Positions 9,843 to 16,631 are shown, numbered from the stretch's first letter. The stretch: 17,049 bases of DNA from a virus (IMGVR_UViG_2671181094_000003); one strand, 5' to 3'. The notes: generated by a model from the letters alone, not told the origin. Made by a program: numbers and translations.

Positions 9843-10958
9843 TTAAATCCCTGCTTTTCTGAATACCTGTGCATCACGCTCACGGAGCTGCTTCAGCGTC
9901 AGCCATTCGCCTTTATCGGTGTAAAATTCATCTGGCGACATACCACCATCCCGAATCAGCTTTGCTCGGGTTTCCCCCACAATCTGTTTTTGTCTGGTGT
10001 AAGGCTGACGCAAAAACCATTCCCTGTAGGTTGTATCTCCGGCCACCACGCCATCCATGCTGGCCCGCTCAGCCGGGGAAATATCGCGAACATCAATACC
10101 CAGTTCCTTCGCTGATTTCAGAATGAACGTTTCCGTTGAGCGGCAGCAGAAATGAATTTTTCCCGGCCCCTGCAAATAAGGCACGCTGTGACCTACAGGT
10201 TTATTATTCAGCGTATATTTGAGGCGATCCCTGATTCGACATTGTGGCGTAGTACGATTATCAAGCGTTGATAACCATTGCTTACCCTTAATCAAATCAT
10301 TATTCGCGCTGGCAAAACTCTCACGGGCAGTAGCAGCAAGATGTCCAACCGCTGTTTTTGCAATGCTGGCCGCATTAGCCCGGCTCATCTGCAATGCACC
10401 ATCCTGAAATCCCTTACTGACATGTCCCCGAATTTTTCTTGCGATCTGCTCATTGGTATCCCCCAGCAAAAAACCCTGACGCACTGTATTTGTTATGCGT
10501 CTGAGCCGATCCGCCTCAAGATCTGAGGCCCACTCACTGAGCAGTCGTCCCTGAAATGGTCGCGCCATTGCAGCGGCATAAAGTGCATCAGGAGAGATAC
10601 CAACCAGAGGGTGAACATCAGCAACAAAATCAGGTAGCATAGAATCAAACAGACTTAACTGATAACCAGCCTCATAAATTGCCAGCTCGTTCAGCTCTCC
10701 GGAGAGACTGGTAAACATGCTGTTAATAGCAGTGCGGTTAACCTCTCTGACGCTCGCCAGAAGTGACTCCAGGCGCTTAACGGTAAAACTACCTGGATCG
10801 AGGCTGTCCAGTGCTATCAGCAGGCGAGCAGTAAGTTCCGCATCGCTGTCATTCAGTATTTTCACCATTCTGGCAGCCACGCCAGTGCTATAGCGGGATA
10901 TCCAGACTGCATGAGCAATTGATTCATCACGCAGCCGTTCATTCACGGTTTGCATCAT
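9843..10958 (-). CDS. Head morphogenesis/minor capsid protein, Mu F / SPP1 gp7-like, 371 aa
   Basis: Position directly after the portal gene, overlapping its 3' end by 20 nt. Size and the conserved-looking ...TTPQCRIRD... region fit this family (recalled). Confidence 0.7.
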   Translation of the reverse strand: MMQTVNERLRDESIAHAVWISRYSTGVAARMVKILNDSDAELTARLLIALDSLDPGSFTVKRLESLLASVREVNRTAINSMFTSLSGELNELAIYEAGYQLSLFDSMLPDFVADVHPLVGISPDALYAAAMARPFQGRLLSEWASDLEADRLRRITNTVRQGFLLGDTNEQIARKIRGHVSKGFQDGALQMSRANAASIAKTAVGHLAATARESFASANNDLIKGKQWLSTLDNRTTPQCRIRDRLKYTLNNKPVGHSVPYLQGPGKIHFCCRSTETFILKSAKELGIDVRDISPAERASMDGVVAGDTTYREWFLRQPYTRQKQIVGETRAKLIRDGGMSPDEFYTDKGEWLTLKQLRERDAQVFRKAGI

Positions 10959-12345
10959 TGATTTCCATCAGCATTACACTCTGATTTTTTAATTCATCGA
11001 TCACTTCCTCTGGACGGGAATCCTGATCGATAAATTTCAACGCCTGCAACACCCGAACCGCATCAATCTGACGTATATCACCGCCCTGACGCAATGACTG
11101 AACAGCCAGCGCGGAGGATGAGTCAAACACCTGGGCAGATACATCCAGTTCAGTGCGCACATCCACATTGCCACCGCAACTCTCTCCGATCCATTCCGCC
11201 ATTATCTGGAGAATATTATCGAGGGCATCTTCGAGGGAGTTCGCCATTGTATAAAGCGGCGAGTTTTCCTGCATTCGCTCTTCATTAGTCTGATCAACAG
11301 ATTTGGTGGATGTATTTTCAGCACGCAGAAGTTTAGCGCCGGCATGACGCATCTGATTTTCCAGCTTCTCAAGTGATGTTTCGCCAGATTCTATCGCTGC
11401 GCCACTATGTTCAACATATTCGAGGCCATTTTTTGTTCTGTCCTCAAAAATCGTAGCGGTGGATGCACCAACCGTCAGTTCTTCATTCCTGTCCAGCCCG
11501 TAGGCCACCAGCAATGGAACGCGGGCAACATGAAGAATATTGTCCTGCTCGCTCTGGCTTTGCCAGTGCTTGATATTCAGCAAGCCAAGATTAAGCAATG
11601 GCGGTGTACCACGCATAAATCCTGTTTTCTTCGTGTACAGTGTTACCAGAGGAATATCATCACGGCTGGTATTCCATGACTCATGAAGCGTCCAGACAGA
11701 TTCGCCATTAGTGCCTTCGCTACGTCGATAAATTTCAACTCGACGGGGCATAATATGGCGGATCTGCTCCACCTTCTTCTGCCCGAAATCATCACCATCA
11801 ATAATGATGACCTCTTTTATACGCAAATCAGTGAGAACAACTTTCCCTTTTTCAACTTTCGATTTCCATCCAATAACCTGGCGTGGATTCAGCATCGTAA
11901 CGTACGGACGACCACCGGTCGCGTTTTCATCGGCTTTTGTCCGAATCTCTTTCATATCCGTTCGTGGATAGTCCACCAGCGCATGTGCCACACCATACTG
12001 AAATGCGAGGCTGAAAAATTGCTGCGCCCACACATCCAGTCGGCTCCCCTCCATGTCGATATTTTCTGCATATTCCCTGATTTTTGCCGGCGTTTCCTCA
12101 CTCAATACTGTCGGCTCTGCAAATATGCGCCCAATATTTTGCTTGATGCTTTCTTCATACACAGGAAGTAGCGTAGCCACAGACAGGCGTTTTTTATAAG
12201 CGTCTTCATCTTCGTTAGGCCATTTTGGGAGATAATTTTCCCCCTGCCTGCGCATTTCAAGCGTACCGCCCATCAGTGCGTCGTTAATATCCCACGCCTC
12301 CAGCATATCGTTATAGTCGAGGTTGGGTGTTGATATATCAGCCAT
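10939..12345 (-). CDS. Portal protein, 468 aa
   Basis: Position immediately downstream of the large terminase (TAA, 2 nt, then ATG). Size typical of portal proteins. Confidence 0.75.
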   Translation of the reverse strand: MADISTPNLDYNDMLEAWDINDALMGGTLEMRRQGENYLPKWPNEDEDAYKKRLSVATLLPVYEESIKQNIGRIFAEPTVLSEETPAKIREYAENIDMEGSRLDVWAQQFFSLAFQYGVAHALVDYPRTDMKEIRTKADENATGGRPYVTMLNPRQVIGWKSKVEKGKVVLTDLRIKEVIIIDGDDFGQKKVEQIRHIMPRRVEIYRRSEGTNGESVWTLHESWNTSRDDIPLVTLYTKKTGFMRGTPPLLNLGLLNIKHWQSQSEQDNILHVARVPLLVAYGLDRNEELTVGASTATIFEDRTKNGLEYVEHSGAAIESGETSLEKLENQMRHAGAKLLRAENTSTKSVDQTNEERMQENSPLYTMANSLEDALDNILQIMAEWIGESCGGNVDVRTELDVSAQVFDSSSALAVQSLRQGGDIRQIDAVRVLQALKFIDQDSRPEEVIDELKNQSVMLMEINDANRE

Positions 12346-12347
12346 AA

Positions 12348-13658
12348 TTAAATCCGAAGTGATGTGCCTCTTCCGGTCGGTTTGACAATAGGGAATTGCT
12401 TAACGATGAAATAACCTCCGGCATCATTCGGGTGATCATTGCCAGATTTTTTATCAGGCTCCCCCTTCTCATCCCAGACCTGTTGCTCCAGAGATTCGGC
12501 ATATAACGGGCAACGCTTCACATTAACTTTATAGCGACGCTCACCATTGGCATTGCAGAACATTGCATTCATTGAGTTAACGCGATCTTTTACTGGCGGG
12601 TTCGAGCTGTTCACCACAACGTTAAAACCAGCCTGCTTAAGCTGGGCTATATCCGTCGTACTTGCGTTACTTGATTTTCTGGAATCCCCGGAAGCATCTG
12701 GATAAATATAAATTTCCCTCACTTTCCGGTAATCATTCCCATCATACAGCCAGAAGCGTTCTTTAATGATGCGGATCATATCCGGCGTATCGTAGGCATT
12801 GATGATTTCAGTTACCGCACATGGAAGCCCCAAACGCAGCACATGGACGATTCCCGCCATCTTTCCAACGTTAAAATCCATCCCAATATAAATCGGCTCC
12901 CCTGGCTGCTCCACTTCTTCGCAATTATTCAGTTTCCGGTCAAACTGATGGTAAACAGTACCACTTGTCAGGTTAGTAAACTGTCCTCGAAGATAGGCTT
13001 TAATCAGCTCTGGAGGGTATGATTCAAGAAGCGAAGGAATGTAATCTGCTGGCAGGTTCTTTTCATTATCGAAAGTAGATGCCTGCACCAGACCATACAG
13101 TGAGGCCAGCTCTGTTTTTTCACGCACGGCTTTAACAAACTGCTCGTAGACAAATTTGAATCCTTCCGGCGTGGTTGTAACGTCAATACCGTTGCGAAGT
13201 CCATCAATCTTATAACGCATACGTGCAATTATCTTGCGCCACGCCGTTCTGGCTTTTTCCTTCGGCAAAATGTCCAGTTCATCCACCAACGCATTACCAA
13301 TTTTGAAACCGACGATCGTTTGTGGCTTCTCCATCGATCTGCAGATAGTGGTTCCCCGATACTGGCGTCCGTAATAAAAGTGAACCTCTTTATTTCCCTC
13401 ATTAATTTTTACGTTCAATCCCCAGTCAGCAGCAACTTCTTCCACTGTAGGGTAAAAAATATCGCGAATTTGGGGATACGTTGGCGCAAAATATCCCTGA
13501 TTTATACCTGGATGCTCCCAAATCCCCTTGCATATGCCGCCACACCCAACCCATGTTTTGCCCGAGCCAAAACCAGCAATATAGGCTTTAAATTTATGGG
13601 GCATTGAAAGAAATCGCGCCTGAGGCACATTAAGCGTCGGAGAGATCATCTTCATCAC
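12348..13658 (-). CDS. Terminase large subunit, about 435 aa
   Basis: Walker A-like GFGSGKTW near the N-terminus. Position between the small terminase and portal. Start is one of three clustered ATGs (13658/13655/13649) just after an AAGGAG SD, overlapping the small-terminase 3' end. Confidence 0.9.
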   Translation of the reverse strand: MMKMISPTLNVPQARFLSMPHKFKAYIAGFGSGKTWVGCGGICKGIWEHPGINQGYFAPTYPQIRDIFYPTVEEVAADWGLNVKINEGNKEVHFYYGRQYRGTTICRSMEKPQTIVGFKIGNALVDELDILPKEKARTAWRKIIARMRYKIDGLRNGIDVTTTPEGFKFVYEQFVKAVREKTELASLYGLVQASTFDNEKNLPADYIPSLLESYPPELIKAYLRGQFTNLTSGTVYHQFDRKLNNCEEVEQPGEPIYIGMDFNVGKMAGIVHVLRLGLPCAVTEIINAYDTPDMIRIIKERFWLYDGNDYRKVREIYIYPDASGDSRKSSNASTTDIAQLKQAGFNVVVNSSNPPVKDRVNSMNAMFCNANGERRYKVNVKRCPLYAESLEQQVWDEKGEPDKKSGNDHPNDAGGYFIVKQFPIVKPTGRGTSLRI

Positions 13659-14724
13659 TCCTTACTCTGGCATCAACCACATTAATTTTGATCGCCACAG
13701 GCTGGGGATGTTCATTATCTTCCACCGTTTCGATCTCTTTGCGCAGCTTCTGGTTTTCCATTCTGCGCCGTTCAATTTCCAGTTCCTGTAGCCGCTTATC
13801 TGCACATAAAGCCCCGCCAGCAGAAAGCAAACGCAACAATTCACGCCGGGCGGCAGCCTTATCCTCCAGCAGGATCTCAACGCCGAATTTTCCGAATTTT
13901 GCCCCTGCATATAATTGCCGCGCATCCCCATCAAGCAGAGTGGTATCAGCCATATAAAGCTGTCCCGTTCCCTCACCGCAGCACTTCGGGCAGTCCGGAT
14001 TGGGTATGGCGTTATCAACAAAGCCGAGGCCTCCATATTCCGGTTCGGGTTTGCCATCTCTGGAAGCCTGCGCCGCTGCCTTGTCGAATTCTGCTATATC
14101 GCGCCACTGGTAGAGATGATTCTCGCCCCAGCAATAACGGCAGTTAACACGGCGAAATTGTGCAAGCTGATTGGGGTCGGCCAGGACAATGGCCATCAAC
14201 TGACTCACTAGTAAATCCAGGTCTGCGGTATAGCGTTTCTGGTACTGATTGCGGAAGTAGCTGATAGCGCGAAAAACCCTGGCATTTCTAAGCATACGAC
14301 TGGCGTTGCTGTTAGCTGTCGCACCTTGCCCCTCATAACCGGCTAGTCGGTACGCCTCTGTCGGCTTTTTACCCTGAGCAACAAGCATCGCAAACTTAGC
14401 CTGCTGGTCAGAAATGCCGAATTCATCGGGACAGAACGAAAATTCCTCCGCGTCGCCCTCATTCAGGCCCGCATCGAATACTGGCTTTTTTTCCTGAGAT
14501 TTTTCGTTCCGCTTTTGTGCAGTCTGCGCAGATTTTTTCTGCGCACTTTTTTGCGCAGTTTTGCGCATTTCTGTCTGCGCATTTTTCGGAGTTTTTTTGA
14601 TGTAACGACGGGCTGTTGCGTAATTCAGTCCCCTTGCTTCACACCATGCCACCGGAGATATACCGGAGCGGGTGTATTCAGCAATATACTCCTGCTGCAA
14701 CGCCCCCCAGTCCGGTCTGCTCAT
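13630..14724 (-). CDS. Terminase small subunit, unusually long (364 aa): N-terminal HTH, Lys-rich linker, Terminase_2-like core, Cys4 cluster
   Basis: The segment ISDQQAKFAMLVAQGKKPTEAYRLAGYEGQGATANSNASRMLRNARVFRAI matches the recalled small-terminase signature (Q..F…TEAY..AGY…A…LL.N..V..AI). Position is directly upstream of the large terminase. Confidence 0.75.
   Translation of the reverse strand: MSRPDWGALQQEYIAEYTRSGISPVAWCEARGLNYATARRYIKKTPKNAQTEMRKTAQKSAQKKSAQTAQKRNEKSQEKKPVFDAGLNEGDAEEFSFCPDEFGISDQQAKFAMLVAQGKKPTEAYRLAGYEGQGATANSNASRMLRNARVFRAISYFRNQYQKRYTADLDLLVSQLMAIVLADPNQLAQFRRVNCRYCWGENHLYQWRDIAEFDKAAAQASRDGKPEPEYGGLGFVDNAIPNPDCPKCCGEGTGQLYMADTTLLDGDARQLYAGAKFGKFGVEILLEDKAAARRELLRLLSAGGALCADKRLQELEIERRRMENQKLRKEIETVEDNEHPQPVAIKINVVDARVRSDEDDLSDA
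14525..14581. repeat. Five copies of the palindromic hexamer TGCGCA interleaved with T-tracts, inside the small-terminase coding region
   Basis: TGCGCA at 14525, 14540, 14552, 14562 and 14576, with T-runs of 4-7 nt between them. Encodes the low-complexity AQK-rich linker (…KTAQKSAQKKSAQTAQK…). Confidence 0.5.
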
Positions 14725-14727
14725 CAG

Positions 14728-14937
14728 TTAGTCCTGATTTTTATCCACCCTGAGTAGTTCGCGCAGAGCAAAGGCATCCCCTTTTCTGGCAAGCTTAAAC
14801 AATGCCGCTCGTAACTCGGCTTCACCTTTCGCTCTGCCCTTACGGATGGCCGCATAAAAATCTGTCATTGCTTCCCGATTTTCTTTCAGTCGGTTCAGAT
14901 CAACATCCAGAACGTCAGCGATTTGTTGTGCAGTCAT
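14728..14937 (-). CDS. Small hypothetical protein with a predicted helix-turn-helix, 69 aa from the ATG at 14937
   Basis: ORF MTAQQIADVLDVDLNRLKENREAMTDFYAAIRKGRAKGEAELRAALFKLARKGDAFALRELLRVDKNQD. Overlaps the 3' end of the upstream gene. The ORF-track start at 14979 would overlap by 65 nt. Confidence 0.45.
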   Translation of the reverse strand: MTAQQIADVLDVDLNRLKENREAMTDFYAAIRKGRAKGEAELRAALFKLARKGDAFALRELLRVDKNQD

Positions 14938-15847
14938 CCGGCACGCTGCCAGAGACTCGACTTTCGAATACGGAATCATTTGTCACCCCCATTGATATGC
15001 AGGGTGTCTTCTTCCTGTATTTTTCGTGAAGGATTTTTACTGCAGCGTTGTTCCAGGTGACCTGATGGTGAATGCGTTTATGGCTGGCACCCATCAGTGA
15101 AATTTTTACGCACGACGGCGCATACATGACGGAGTAAAAACTTTTAACGTAGGTTCCGGAATCCAGATACAGCTCGGTCATTCCGCCGCTGTTTTTCTGC
15201 GTCTGTTTCTGCCCTAACTGGACAGCACCGATCGTCATAAACAATTCACCACAGCGACCGAGATTCGTGTACGTATTCACATCCTCGTTAATGCGCCCCA
15301 TGAATGAGAACGGTCGATCAACCGAACAGATAAAGCTGTTCATTGCCTTGCGTTTCACCCACGAAGCATGGCCGCCATTGTCACCAAGAAAATCCCCGCC
15401 CTGCGACATAGCGATGGAAAGAGCAGGTATTGATTCGTAGTACGCCAGCATTTCAGAAAGGATCGCATCCAGTTTCCTTATCGGAAAATAGGCCTGGTCA
15501 TAGTTGCGATCCACCCGAAACTGGAACTCGTGATAATCATCATCGAGCTGAATGAAGTATTTACACCCGACCAGTTTTGCCAGGTCAAAACAGGCATTAC
15601 GGGCGTAAAAAATTGAGCGGCGGTCACAGAAATTATCGGCTTCGTCAAAACGACTGGCGATATCGGCTTTGGAAAACACCAGCACCTGTTCACCAAATTC
15701 AGCCATGTACTGATGCCGTGTCTTATCTTCATCATCAACAACGATAAAAATTTTCCCGGTATAGCCAGCACGACGCAACGTCCGGTAAGTCAGAACTTTG
15801 TCTGGTCGCCCGTGAGTCAGAATAAAGGCGCAAAAATCATCACGCAT
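14915..15847 (-). CDS. Hypothetical protein, ~310 aa, with GT-A glycosyltransferase-like motifs; substrate unknown
   Basis: ATG at 15847 has an AGGAGG SD and overlaps the ParB-like stop in ATGCGTGA. Motifs FILTHGR…IFIVVDDEDKT and YFIQLDDDYHE resemble the GT2 signatures (…PTYNR…VVDDGS.D, DxD). No obvious transmembrane segment. Assignment from motifs only. Confidence 0.5.
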   Translation of the reverse strand: MRDDFCAFILTHGRPDKVLTYRTLRRAGYTGKIFIVVDDEDKTRHQYMAEFGEQVLVFSKADIASRFDEADNFCDRRSIFYARNACFDLAKLVGCKYFIQLDDDYHEFQFRVDRNYDQAYFPIRKLDAILSEMLAYYESIPALSIAMSQGGDFLGDNGGHASWVKRKAMNSFICSVDRPFSFMGRINEDVNTYTNLGRCGELFMTIGAVQLGQKQTQKNSGGMTELYLDSGTYVKSFYSVMYAPSCVKISLMGASHKRIHHQVTWNNAAVKILHEKYRKKTPCISMGVTNDSVFESRVSGSVPDDCTTNR

Positions 15848-16631
15848 ATTCCTCCTCCTCACCACCATGCATGATCTCCACCATGCGCTGCGTCATCCGG
15901 ACAAATCCATTTTCAATAGCCTGCTGATAATCAATGATCACCAGCGCCGACTCCTCGAAAAAACACTGAATTTCAGCGGGGGCGTGAGCGTAATAGTCCG
16001 CAATTCTGCTGAAATTAAACACCGTGTGACGTTCTGCCGCACACAGGAGGAATTTCTCAATATCAGGCTCAAGGGACGCCGAACGTATCCGGCTGATCAG
16101 CTCCTGAGTTTTCGTATCGTCGTACAGTTCACTGATATCCGGTTTACCGCCCGACGGCTCATAAACAGGCGTATCAATTTTCGTCGTATACGGCTCCTCC
16201 TCATTTCCTGTACCGGGCACAACATCCGTCAACAGTTCATCAATTTCTGTCGGGATGAAGCCTGTCAGGGAGACATCAAAATCAGCATTGATTAGGTCCG
16301 ACAGCTCCATCCGCAACAGATCTTCATCCCAGCCAGCATTCATCGGCAGGCGATTATCTGCCAGGCGGTACGCCTTTTTCTGCTCATCCGTCAAGCCAGA
16401 CAGAACAATGACCGGAACAGAATCCATTTTGAGCATTTCAGCCGCCATAACACGACCGTGACCCGCAATAATTTCGCCCTTTTCGTCAATCAGCACCGGA
16501 TTAGTCCAGCCGAATTGCTTAATACTTTCTACCAGTTGTGCCACCTGCTCAGGGCTGTGCGTCCTGGCGTTGTGCGCATACGGTGACAATTCTTGTAATG
16601 GGCGATAGACTATCTTTAATTTCTCGCTCAT
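15840..16631 (-). CDS. ParB-like N-terminal-domain (ParB/Srx fold) protein, 263 aa
   Basis: N-terminal region …YRPLQELSPYAHNARTHSPEQVAQLVESIKQFGWTNPVLIDEKGEIIAGHGRVMAA… has the ParB-N pattern with a G-H-G-R motif. AAGG SD 6 nt before the ATG. Confidence 0.8.
   Translation of the reverse strand: MSEKLKIVYRPLQELSPYAHNARTHSPEQVAQLVESIKQFGWTNPVLIDEKGEIIAGHGRVMAAEMLKMDSVPVIVLSGLTDEQKKAYRLADNRLPMNAGWDEDLLRMELSDLINADFDVSLTGFIPTEIDELLTDVVPGTGNEEEPYTTKIDTPVYEPSGGKPDISELYDDTKTQELISRIRSASLEPDIEKFLLCAAERHTVFNFSRIADYYAHAPAEIQCFFEESALVIIDYQQAIENGFVRMTQRMVEIMHGGEEEEYA

Follow-up and report, generated by a model that had tools for sequence, protein, structure and literature searches.

The small terminase (TerS) gene of a Rac-like lambdoid siphophage prophage of Escherichia coli carries, immediately next to a portable N-terminal helix-turn-helix (HTH) module, a linker that is encoded by a DNA-constrained array of TGCGCA hexamers, an arrangement that is newly described here. 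The gene was analysed within a single window of viral DNA (IMGVR_UViG_2671181094_000003; 17,049 nucleotides), and the protein that it encodes further combines an SF6/SPP1-type Terminase_2 core with a conserved four-cysteine (Cys4) insertion. The account as a whole, in which such a protein would use the array inside its own gene as the packaging initiation (pac) site, is one that we consider moderately likely to be correct.

The terminase gene and its SF6-type core

The 364-residue open reading frame occupies 13630..14724 on the minus strand, and begins with an ATG codon that follows an AGGA ribosome-binding site located 7 nt on its 5' side. Its assignment as a small terminase subunit, which an earlier sequence-only reading had proposed, was borne out by the ORF listing and by Pfam, PHROG, PDB-profile and PGAP comparisons, and is close to certain: Pfam Terminase_2 (PF03592) matches residues 122-321 (E 1.3e-8; 36 bits, with a gathering cut-off of 26.1), phrog_51 aligns from end to end (E 4e-76), a profile built from 107 homologues matches SF6 TerS (3zqp/3zqq; E 1.6e-17), and 'terminase small subunit' is the name that PGAP gives it in 896 E. 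coli genomes. Among 5426 complete genomes of E. coli, 896 carry the gene, which is, as an annotation, an ordinary and very common prophage gene; a PADLOC search matched the protein to no defence system.

The surrounding region displays a one-strand gene order of TerS-TerL-portal-MuF-scaffold-capsid-tail, in which terS lies directly 5' of its large-subunit partner, TerL (12348..13658, minus strand; Pfam Terminase_6N, E 3.7e-33, and Terminase_6C, E 3.4e-10), and of the portal gene (10939-12345, same strand as terS; assigned from the ORF listing, Pfam and PHROG), and in which the start of the TerL frame overlaps the 3' end of terS. On the other side of terS, an HTH-like ORF of 83 residues (14728..14979, minus strand) ends with a stop codon 4 nt before the terS ATG and matches positions 145-218 of the 319 in phrog_309, itself named 'terminase small subunit' (E 8e-23); it may encode an accessory protein, and a PDB search conducted with it returned nothing informative. 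A ParB_N protein and a small HTH-like ORF are kept just upstream of terS, and in two distant loci (L014 and L015) an ORF of 85-88 residues occupies the place of the 83-residue frame, a correspondence of position only.

The architecture of the protein was examined using a monomeric AlphaFold2 model built from a multiple sequence alignment, a single-sequence model (mean pLDDT 47) having been discarded. Residues 105-147 (14284..14412, minus strand) form the canonical Terminase_2 DNA-binding HTH domain, as defined by profile alignment and by the model, in which helices are predicted at 106-116, 121-127 and 134-146 with block-mean pLDDT values of 96-98. Positions 10-92 of the homologue profile align to residues 21-102 of the SF6 TerS chain, positions 9-74 match isolated structures of the SF6 DNA-binding domain (4zc3, E 5e-11; 2cmp, E 3e-10), and Pam5 TerS (21di) matches the same profile with an E value of 1.5e-13. 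The SF6-type DNA-binding domain of the query thus corresponds to residues 105-147, and hence does not lie at the N-terminus of the protein. Homologues that lack the N-terminal module begin at approximately query residue 104, which, together with the span of the Terminase_2 match, agrees with the previous placement of the core's start near residue 105.

The remainder of the core follows the same pattern. A long helix, residues 148-183 (14176..14283, minus strand; modelled as helix 148-181), falls, in the profile alignment, at the tail of the first SF6 stretch and is the equivalent of oligomerisation helix 1, and a beta-hairpin (272-286; strands 272-278 and 281-286) followed by a long helix (289-336) is the counterpart of the second half of the oligomerisation core (13717..13920, minus strand), where profile positions 188-225 align weakly to SF6 chain residues 117-154 (domain E 0.6). 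The protein ends in an acidic tail, residues 337-364 (13630..13716, minus strand; final residues DEDDLSDA), which is modelled at low confidence (block-mean pLDDT 51-54), overlaps the start of TerL at the DNA level, and is presumably, from general knowledge of small terminases, the region that contacts TerL. A Foldseek search of the PDB with the whole model gave no significant match (all E > 0.2; the best, E 0.27, being PaP3 TerS), and a search of BFVD recovered other TerS proteins only, the best being that of Itty13 (E 1.3e-18).

The core is of the SF6/SPP1 Terminase_2 type: its HTH domain and the helix after it are homologous to those of G1P (3ZQP/3ZQQ; DNA-binding domain 4ZC3/2CMP), with a profile E value of 1.6e-17, and a second, weak match covers the beta strand and second helix. 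SF6 TerS is a protein of 145 residues, the deposited chain comprising 164; unlike the query, it possesses no extra N-terminal HTH, basic tether or Cys4 module. The gene neighbourhood is likewise reminiscent of SPP1, with terS upstream of TerL and followed by an SPP1-like portal and MuF head module.

A conserved four-cysteine insertion within the core

The Cys4 module spans residues 184-268 (13921..14175, minus strand), as delimited by conservation and by the gap in the profile alignment, and has the pattern C195-x2-C198-x-G ... C245-P-x-C248-x-G-x-G, with cysteine codons at 14140-14142, 14131-14133, 13990-13992 and 13981-13983 on the minus strand. The protein contains cysteines at positions 28, 98, 195, 198, 245, 248, 249 and 307, and the two clusters, NCRYC (195/198) and CPKCC (245/248/249), have their first cysteines 50 residues apart. 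In 107 diverse homologues, with individual identities to the query of 26-53%, C195, R196, C198, G200 and G250 are invariant and C245, P246 and C248 reach at least 90% conservation, whereas conservation is absent from C28, C98, C249 and C307. In each knuckle the glycine located two residues past the second cysteine is invariant, and the consensus reads RRxxCRxCWG...GGxGF...PNPxCPxCxGEG; as judged from this alignment, the four-cysteine pattern lies far beyond chance expectation.

The Pfam match covers 200 residues of TerS as compared with only 110 profile positions, and the SF6 alignment jumps over profile positions 92-188. The module is internal to the core, in the middle of the Terminase_2 match: some 80 residues are inserted after oligomerisation helix 1 and ahead of the beta-hairpin and second helix, a junction that about 15 residues bridge in SF6. 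The sequence-only reading had correctly singled out two CxxC pairs, whose four cysteines proved to be conserved, but its placement of the cluster at the C-terminus must be replaced by one in the middle of the core. The insertion is modelled with high confidence (block-mean pLDDT 97-98), with DSSP assigning to the predicted model strands 188-193 and 253-258 that flank the knuckles and a helix, 210-222, between them.

The same reading had also suggested a zinc ribbon, and that fold was not supported. The Cys4 segment alone matched no Pfam family at E<=10, and searches of Pfam, NCBIfam and PDB profiles with either this segment or the N-terminal HTH by itself returned nothing significant. A profile of the module gave weak PDB matches only (anti-TRAP, E 0.056; UvrA, E 0.5; DnaJ, E 3.8); those taken as relevant, the zinc sites of these three proteins, were restricted to the second knuckle, which would thus bear a weak similarity, at the level of the motif only, to CxxCxGxG zinc knuckles. 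The conservation pattern nevertheless makes it probable that the module binds metal, the four cysteines of the two CxxCxG knuckles most likely holding one zinc ion. The insertion may stiffen an extra crown on the TerS ring, its place in that ring being a guess from a monomer model, and the conserved arginines of the RRxxCR motif might contact DNA.

TerS proteins of the F116, Bcep22 and Itty13 type (~250-270 residues), which are named plainly 'terminase small subunit' in public records, share the Terminase_2 core, the Cys4 insertion and its motif with the query, and differ from it in having no N-terminal HTH, tether or hexamer array. Since F116 and Bcep22 TerS (~250 residues) carry the Cys4 module alone, the module is independent of the N-terminal HTH. 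No description of a zinc, CxxC or cysteine module in a phage TerS was found in the literature searched, and a 2022 review of TerS proteins mentions zinc for herpesvirus proteins only (PMC9611059). The latter, pUL28/pUL56, are terminase DNA-recognition subunits that contain zinc fingers (PMC9611059); no relationship of sequence or fold between them and the query TerS was found.

The N-terminal HTH module and the hexamer array

Residues 1-44 (14593..14724, minus strand) are predicted to form a three-helix HTH module (helices 6-20, 24-31 and 35-41; block-mean pLDDT 88-95), the third helix of which is basic, lies in a helix-turn-helix layout in the AlphaFold2 model, and is the presumed recognition helix (ATARRYI, residues 35-41). 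No Pfam match of any kind was obtained for residues 1-60, and a resemblance to the HTH of IS66 TnpA was weak (E 2.7e-4) and below the cut-off. That this module is an addition lying outside the standard TerS fold, as the sequence-only reading had also supposed, is upheld by its predicted helices, by its absence from the ~250-residue homologues, and by its presence in front of unrelated cores.

The same HTH heads the TerS proteins of phrog_370, phrog_32222 and phrog_51 and was found in 252 phage records, Stx phages among them; it is a module common to at least three different TerS cores. In the Stx phages the core that it heads is phrog_370. The TerS of the Stx/933W type (for example, that of P13374) resembles the query in an HTH that is approximately 40% identical over residues 1-43 and in a repeat-encoding spacer after it that contains two TGCGCA copies; it is unlike the query in its unrelated core, which has no Pfam match, Terminase_2 HTH or Cys4 module, and its spacer also contains a different repeat, four copies of GATCAT with a 12-nt period. 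Whether the module is sometimes a separate gene was examined using a 50%-cluster homologue library, in which no intact separate gene was found, and a word-indexed search, which gave only relatives more than 82% identical. Short ORFs that contain the HTH were rejected as separate genes, being fragments at least 72% (most 82-99%) identical to full-length genes, and several of them are visibly frameshifted within the linker.

An extra DNA-binding domain in front of a Terminase_2 core has a precedent in the Bacillus phages Sam46 and Sam112, the TerS of which was published as an unusual architecture consisting of FtsK_gamma and Terminase_2 domains (the latter at residues 107-230; approximately 105 in the query), with the additional domain suggested to read specific sites (PMC8190038). 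That domain is a winged helix that belongs to a Pfam family and is thought to be host-derived (PMC8190038), whereas the domain of the query is a three-helix HTH without a Pfam family that is common to many TerS cores of proteobacterial phages; moreover, neither a Cys4 insertion nor an in-gene repeat array has been reported for Sam46. The architecture of the query is thus analogous to that of Sam46 and Sam112, and is not a member of the FtsK_gamma group.

Between the HTH and the core lie a basic 'AQK' spacer (residues 45-80; 14485..14592, minus strand), delimited from the model and by sequence comparison and predicted to be helical at 47-76 (block-mean pLDDT 73-78), and an acidic disordered tether (residues 81-104; 14413..14484, minus strand), which the model leaves without regular structure as far as residue 98, with pLDDT falling below 50 over residues 78-88. 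Within the spacer DNA is a palindromic TGCGCA array (14516..14581, with no strand assigned), recognised by clustering and by codon tests, which we regard as a candidate pac or TerS-binding site. Exact copies lie at 14525, 14540, 14552, 14562 and 14576, spaced 10-15 bp apart with A-rich flanks, and a degenerate TGCACA is found at 14516-14521; of the 12 occurrences of TGCGCA across the window, five are packed into 57 bp. Across array-bearing genes the hexamer spacings cluster at 9-15 bp, with 12 being the commonest.

Several lines of evidence bear on the level at which this sequence is maintained. The spacer peptide varies strongly among relatives (AQK, SANK, CE(T/S)N, HEID) while the DNA motif is kept; hexamer copies fall in two reading frames in terS, and in two or three within or between genes, such that the same hexamer contributes to MRK, TAQK, CAK and CE peptides. 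The TGCGCA count in terS exceeds that obtained by synonymous-codon resampling (P 0.0005), and, among 14 terS genes equipped with the N-terminal HTH, 12 contain 3-7 copies of TGCG[CA]A as compared with 0.35-2.2 expected for the same protein (P<=0.0015); the first 150 nt of the F116 and Bcep22 terS genes contain none. Of 49 Ala-Gln dipeptides, 46 use GCG for alanine, a codon chosen for 23% of alanines elsewhere in these genes, and 47 have a T just before that codon, with nine different residues ahead of the alanine; the wobble base that follows varies freely (28 CAA versus 21 CAG). Together, these sequence comparisons show that the constraint on the linker region acts on the DNA and not on the peptide. 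What had been read as a Lys-rich linker is indeed a basic spacer, but it is better understood as the peptide that results when a DNA repeat array is translated, since the hexamer is kept while the peptide differs and codon usage is biased towards TGCGCA.

Two observations count against the packaging proposal set out below: one divergent N-terminal HTH (P0145) is accompanied by a single hexamer, and the Stx phages have only their two TGCGCA copies besides GATCAT. In every distinct array-bearing gene, ARRYIK helices are paired with TGCGCA and AKRYIK helices with TGCGAA/TTCGCA, so that the hexamer type tracks residue 39 of the recognition helix (Arg39 with TGCGCA, Lys39 with TGCGAA). Codon 39 lies only about 25 bp from the first hexamer, and this correlation could be explained by physical linkage alone. 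One locus (L096) looks recombinant, with a breakpoint just before codon 39, and the covariation was accordingly downgraded as proof of direct read-out.

A proposed packaging model, its competitors and its significance

The mechanism that we favour would proceed as follows. The core (residues 105-336), with its HTH DNA-binding domain and the helical oligomerisation region after it, would presumably build the usual TerS ring, from which the N-terminal HTHs would hang on flexible tethers of approximately 60 residues, the first part of each being encoded by five to six TGCGCA hexamers. The HTHs of the ring would then read the hexamer array inside the phage's own terS, and TerS bound there would recruit TerL for the first cut, after which headful packaging would follow, with the array serving as the pac signal or as part of it, and the HTH and array would travel from phage to phage as a single specificity cassette. 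On the sequence comparisons it is plausible, though slightly short of probable, that the N-terminal HTH reads the array as the pac site. A further proposal is more tentative and is offered as possible rather than likely: that this cassette is self-contained and has been grafted by horizontal exchange onto at least three unrelated TerS cores, that of Shiga-toxin phages included, that residue 39 determines which base stands fifth in the hexamer (Arg39, TGCGCA; Lys39, TGCGAA), and, separately, that the Cys4 module is the first zinc element found described in a phage TerS ring.

There are parallels for such a location. Phage P1 pac consists of clustered TGATCA/G hexamers that are read by PacA, lies in the gene of the terminase recognition subunit, and is under Dam-methylation control. 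By analogy only, it resembles the array in comprising several short near-palindromic hexamers in a recognition-subunit gene, while differing in its hexamer, its protein family and its control by methylation. In SPP1, pac overlaps the 5' portion of the TerS gene, where the DNA-binding domain is encoded (PMC6316719), and the pac of P22 lies within terS, while that of ES18 remains unknown (PMC11260489). In the literature searched, no mapped pac site was found either for Stx phages or for prophages of this group, nor any link between TGCGCA and phage packaging.

Alternative explanations of the array differ in whether it has a function as DNA. It might be a slippage by-product of a low-complexity (AQK)n peptide, with the N-terminal HTH reading some other site or none. 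Such an origin would fit a spacer that repeats in tandem every ~12-15 nt, with a copy number that differs by whole units among close relatives, and it would also fit the close E. coli copies, in which variability (0.045 at hexamer as compared with 0.068 at spacer positions) does not clearly separate the two and unit indels dominate. We nonetheless regard it as decidedly unlikely: the hexamer is kept in different frames, synonymous resampling rejects a protein-only model in 12 of 14 genes, GCG and its preceding T are retained (46 and 47 of 49) whatever the neighbouring residue, and slippage alone would not keep the hexamer across phages of Vibrio, Pasteurella, Yersinia and E. coli with spacers that cannot be aligned. 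Somewhat less improbable, though still unlikely, is an array that functions in a capacity other than pac, as a late-gene operator, as a UGCGCA structure in mRNA, or as a recombination hotspot for the N-terminal module. The constraint on DNA would suit any of these, the array lies exactly at the junction of the HTH with different cores, and the reference list of one paper (PMC6316719) includes a study of how the SPP1 terminase represses its own synthesis, which would suit an operator. Against these roles stand the co-occurrence of the array with a DNA-binding domain of the packaging-recognition protein, which points to TerS as its reader, the spacing by helical turns, and the known pac sites in terS genes.

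Two further possibilities concern the protein. The model originally proposed, a standard TerS with a fused N-terminal DNA-recognition domain and a C-terminal zinc ribbon as a DNA-binding appendage, anticipated a separable, modular HTH and a conserved Cys4 pattern; it is highly unlikely as a whole, given that the Cys4 module sits inside the core and independently of the HTH (in F116 and Bcep22), that no zinc-ribbon family was matched, and that no stand-alone gene for the N-terminal domain was found. Equally improbable is a purely structural Cys4 module combined with an HTH that serves in protein interaction or regulation, docking the 83-residue protein, the ParB-like protein or a host factor. 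The conserved small HTH-like ORF and ParB_N protein just upstream would provide it with partners, but phrog_370 loci are without the ParB-TAGT-83aa trio, the TerS proteins of this family (Stx-type, RothC, Pmp11) match no Pfam entry and have the N-terminal HTH as their sole recognisable domain of DNA-binding type, and the predicted helix-turn-helix layout with its basic third helix suggests binding to DNA.

To the general question of how small terminases recognise their own genome, this TerS family brings a testable pairing: a detachable HTH and a repeat array a few base pairs away, with an apparent correspondence of one residue to one base. Its ring core also contains a conserved metal-type module, of a kind that the TerS reviews consulted do not mention for phages and that, if it binds zinc, would be the first such element found described in a phage small terminase ring. 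If the cassette reading is true, pac sites, and with them the start points of headful packaging and of lateral transduction, would become readable from sequence; this would apply to approximately one-sixth of E. coli genomes, and pac would be reprogrammable by design. A correct prediction of pac would bear on the transduction of virulence and resistance genes, since 896 of the 5426 complete E. coli genomes contain the gene and 252 phage records, Stx-converting phages among them, contain its N-terminal module.

Identity and setting of the gene

The open reading frame at 13630-14724 on the minus strand, which in the ORF listing begins with ATG and encodes 364 amino acids, had been taken from sequence alone to be a small terminase gene (terS), and that assignment was upheld: the Pfam family Terminase_2 matched residues 122-321 (E 1.3e-8, over the gathering score), the PHROG family phrog_51 ('terminase small subunit') matched the protein end to end (E 4e-76), and the large subunit, TerL, is encoded next downstream. 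A ribosome-binding site, AGGA, stands 7 nt 5' of the start, and the stop codon of an upstream 83-aa ORF lies 4 nt ahead of the ATG. On the same strand, TerL (Terminase_6N/6C), a DUF4055 portal and a Mu-F-like head morphogenesis protein are followed by genes for a scaffold, a major head protein, adaptors, tail proteins and a tape measure; the region is a siphophage late operon, with TerS at its canonical position. A record labelled 'Salmonella phage SPF_0923' (L001, ON032529), which displays 100% identity to the window over terS, carries, at 421-1797, trkG beside a ParB-like gene, and the region was therefore read as a Rac-type E. coli prophage despite that label. Of 5426 complete E. coli genomes, 896 carry the gene, which PGAP annotates there as 'terminase small subunit'; the gene is common and correctly named, and its annotation is ordinary.

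Directly upstream of the packaging genes, and also on the minus strand, lie genes for a ParB_N-like protein (15840-16631) and a TET-associated glycosyltransferase, or TAGT (14915-15868; PF20691, E 4e-35). The ParB_N-like protein matched phage and PADLOC type II methyltransferase models over its N-terminal part only, and no TET/JBP or cytosine methyltransferase gene was visible within the window. The order ParB_N-TAGT-85aa-TerS recurs in a distant metagenome locus (L014), and the first two genes may represent a DNA-modification function tied to packaging. The 83-aa ORF (14728-14979, minus strand) displays an HTH-like sequence pattern and matches an internal stretch of phrog_309 'terminase small subunit' (positions 145-218 of 319, E 8e-23); ORFs of 85-88 aa, likened to it by size and place, occupy its position in L014 and L015. 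It could encode a second, separate DNA-recognition partner of TerS. Several database proteins (P0006, P0026 and P0032) join this TerS to other domains, including a 565-aa fusion of Terminase_2 and TAGT and a 616-aa 'tail fiber protein' with Terminase_2 and tail-fibre domains; these are probably read-through products or assembly chimeras rather than true architectures.

A cysteine module within the terminase core

A search of 50%-identity cluster representatives (E<=0.001) recovered 1769 relatives, the best 150 of which are mostly proteins of about 250 aa that start at about query residue 104. A profile of 107 relatives (26-53% identical to the query) matched the solved SF6 TerS structures 3zqp/3zqq (E 1.6e-17), as well as Pam5 TerS and isolated SF6 DNA-binding domains; these matches identify residues 105-147 as the canonical TerS HTH domain. 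The shorter homologues and the SF6 match together bear out the sequence-only reading, which had placed the start of the core around residue 105.

That reading had also pointed to two motifs, NCRYC and CPKCC, and both are present, with their first cysteines 50 residues apart. The protein contains cysteines at residues 28, 98, 195, 198, 245, 248, 249 and 307; across the 107 relatives C195, R196, C198, G200 and G250 are invariant and C245, P246 and C248 are kept in at least 90%, and C28, C98, C249 and C307 show no conservation among homologues. The consensus of the region is RRxxCRxCWGxxHxYQW ... GGxGF ... PNPxCPxCxGEG ... DT. The cluster had been placed at the C-terminus, with a zinc ribbon suggested, a layout that the alignments contradict: Pfam Terminase_2 spreads 200 TerS residues over 110 profile positions, phrog_51 aligns 364 residues with 261 positions, and the SF6 match falls into two stretches that skip profile positions 92-188, for which the SF6 counterpart is about 15 residues long, all of which places the cysteines inside the core. 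An AlphaFold2 model built from the alignment (mean pLDDT 85.9, with block means of 97-98 over residues 181-260) predicts, in order, a long helix (148-181), a strand (188-193), a first knuckle (C195, C198), a helix (210-222), a second knuckle (C245, C248), a strand (253-258), a hairpin (272-286) and a long helix (289-336). By these alignments and this prediction, the Cys4 module sits between the two core helices, as about 80 residues inserted into their connection.

The module is found in the TerS of phages F116 and Bcep22, which lack the N-terminal domain. The protein is matched by approximately 70 phage records, whose hosts include Pseudomonas, Burkholderia, Erwinia, Klebsiella and Yersinia, and most of these matches span the module-containing region; the four cysteines were verified directly in F116, Bcep22 and Yersinia phage 29.18. 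A Pfam search of the segment returned no covering family, and a module-only profile gave weak matches to solved structures, the relevant ones limited to the CPxCxGxG knuckle (anti-TRAP, E 0.056; UvrA, E 0.5; DnaJ, E 3.8). Since those are all genuine zinc sites, metal binding is supported by analogy and the module probably binds zinc, while its membership in any of the three families is not established. The TerS reviews consulted either name zinc for herpesvirus pUL28/pUL56 alone or omit it, and a literature search for zinc or CxxC with phage TerS returned nothing relevant.

A portable N-terminal domain and a hexamer array

Residues 1-44 are predicted by AlphaFold2 to form three helices (6-20, 24-31 and 35-41; block-mean pLDDT 88-95). 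Searches of this domain yielded no Pfam family and no relative among solved structures, and a single match, to the IS66 TnpA HTH, fell below threshold. A tblastn search with residues 1-80 matched 252 phage records, nearly all of them limited to residues 1-43 at the very start of terS. The domain precedes a Cys4-bearing Terminase_2 core in this gene and in Yersinia phage 29.18, a phrog_370 core without a Pfam match in Stx phage P13374, RothC, Pmp11 and Vibrio phage douglas 12A4, and a phrog_32222 core in PSTCR3; it is thus a module exchanged among TerS families, which supports the earlier suggestion of a fused accessory recognition module. An intact separate gene for it, which that suggestion had raised as a check, was not found among the homologues compared: short ORFs with the domain are fragments that share at least 72% identity (82-99% in most cases) with full-length genes, several of them with a visible frameshift inside the linker. 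Truncated or frameshifted copies (L064, L071, P0147, P0164, P0180 and P0207) diverge within the A-run-rich array and linker, leaving short ORFs that carry the HTH alone; they may be pseudogenes, or may stem from sequencing slips or from true slippage in homopolymers. The TerS proteins of Bacillus phages Sam46 and Sam112 likewise add an N-terminal DNA-binding domain to a Terminase_2 core, but theirs is FtsK_gamma (PMC8190038), to which the present domain is unrelated. The anatomy first proposed was largely correct, except that the Cys4 cluster is an internal insertion and that no stand-alone gene for the N-terminal domain was found.

The linker that follows had been noted as Lys-rich; it is better read as a DNA repeat array. 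Its AAA-rich coding strand is interrupted by the palindromic hexamer TGCGCA, with exact copies at 14525, 14540, 14552, 14562 and 14576 and a degenerate copy, TGCACA, at 14516-14521. Across the full 17 kb of the window 12 copies occur, versus 7.6 expected; for five of them to fall within 57 bp, the Poisson probability is about 1e-10. In the genes tabulated, hexamers are mostly 9-15 bp apart, 12 being the commonest spacing, and the distance falls to 6-7 bp where they abut, as in the palindrome TGCGAATTCGCA. The window's terS has an extra TGCGCAAA copy near its 3' end (13738-13745), not far from the TerL start and some 780 bp downstream of the array.

Every other examined terS with a close copy of the N-terminal HTH bears a comparable array at the corresponding position, regardless of the core it is joined to. 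Vibrio phage douglas 12A4 has six GCGCAA, five of which are TGCGCA; Pasteurella phage Pmp11 has eight TGCGAA, which two frames translate as Cys-Glu and as Ala-Asn; and RothC, PSTCR3 and Yersinia phage 29.18 have TGCGAA(TTCGCA). Stx phage P13374 carries GATCAT four times with an exact period of 12 nt, followed by two TGCGCA that are translated as Cys-Ala. Its repeats (L007, about 2640-2690 and 2732-2765) lie just past the shared HTH, and each GATCAT holds a Dam GATC site; they resemble the P1 pac site, with its hexamer clusters under Dam control. Among genomic and metagenomic homologues, six of seven have four or five copies each, and the seventh (P0145), with a divergent HTH (AKKYIS), has a single hexamer.

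One could regard the array as a by-product of a low-complexity peptide, but reading-frame and codon evidence argues against it. One copy lies in another frame (ATG CGC AAA, M-R-K, versus ACT GCG CAA AAA, T-A-Q-K). When synonymous codons were redrawn with the protein fixed, and TGCG[CA]A was counted in the 150 nt past the HTH, 12 of 14 genes had 3-7 copies versus 0.35-2.2 expected (P<=0.0015), a conservative result because the codon table took in the arrays themselves; F116 and Bcep22 have no TGCG[CA]A in the first 150 nt of terS. Alanine is encoded by GCG in 46 of 49 Ala-Gln dipeptides from 11 genes, versus 23% elsewhere in the same genes; the base before this Ala codon is T in 47 of the 49, with any of nine amino acids preceding, and the base following the hexamer is free (28 CAA, 21 CAG). 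The array peptides differ radically across phages (AQK, SANK, CE(T/S)N, CAK, HEID), but the hexamer, or a form that differs from it by one base, persists. Resampling, codon choice and peptide divergence thus show that the array is constrained as DNA.

A candidate pac cassette

The third helix of the N-terminal HTH reads either A-R-R-Y-I-K or A-K-R-Y-I-K. All 14 distinct tabulated ARRYIK genes have TGCGCA arrays (4-8 copies, zero TGCGAA), as do about 45 ARRYIK loci among 47 distinct IMG/VR loci, and six AKRYIK genes have TGCGAA/TTCGCA. In loci L096 and L097 just two HTH positions depart from the L086 group, one of them R39K, and the hexamer type is switched. This pattern fits, and does not prove, direct reading of hexamer position 5 by residue 39. 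Some 25 bp separate codon 39 from the first hexamer, and L096 is an apparent recombinant, RothC-like from that codon on, so that linkage alone could yield the same pattern. That the N-terminal domain is instead a protein-interaction domain is unlikely, because searches of the phrog_370 proteins revealed no other recognisable DNA-binding domain. The array could also have a function other than pac: it might act as an autoregulatory operator, form an RNA structure or serve as a recombination junction at which modules are exchanged.

In the mechanism proposed, TerS presumably forms a ring of the usual type through helices 148-181 and 289-336, and its canonical HTH domains (105-147) would make general DNA contacts such as those described for SF6 (PMC4737164). 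A rigid crown would come from the insertion, presumably stabilised by zinc, and the conserved RRxxCR arginines of this insertion might touch DNA. Each N-terminal HTH is attached by a tether of about 60 residues, in which a basic helix (47-76) gives way to a disordered acidic stretch; these HTHs would bind the hexamer array within terS and so mark the pac region, after which TerL (Terminase_6 type), together with the acidic C-terminal tail, would begin headful packaging. A pac site within terS is described for P22 (PMC11260489), and that of SPP1 overlaps the part of gene 1 encoding the DNA-binding domain (PMC6316719). The combination of a Terminase_2 core, an internal Cys4 module, a portable HTH and a DNA-constrained hexamer array was absent from the reviews and papers searched; its interest rests mainly on the testable hypothesis that the HTH and the array form a pac cassette.
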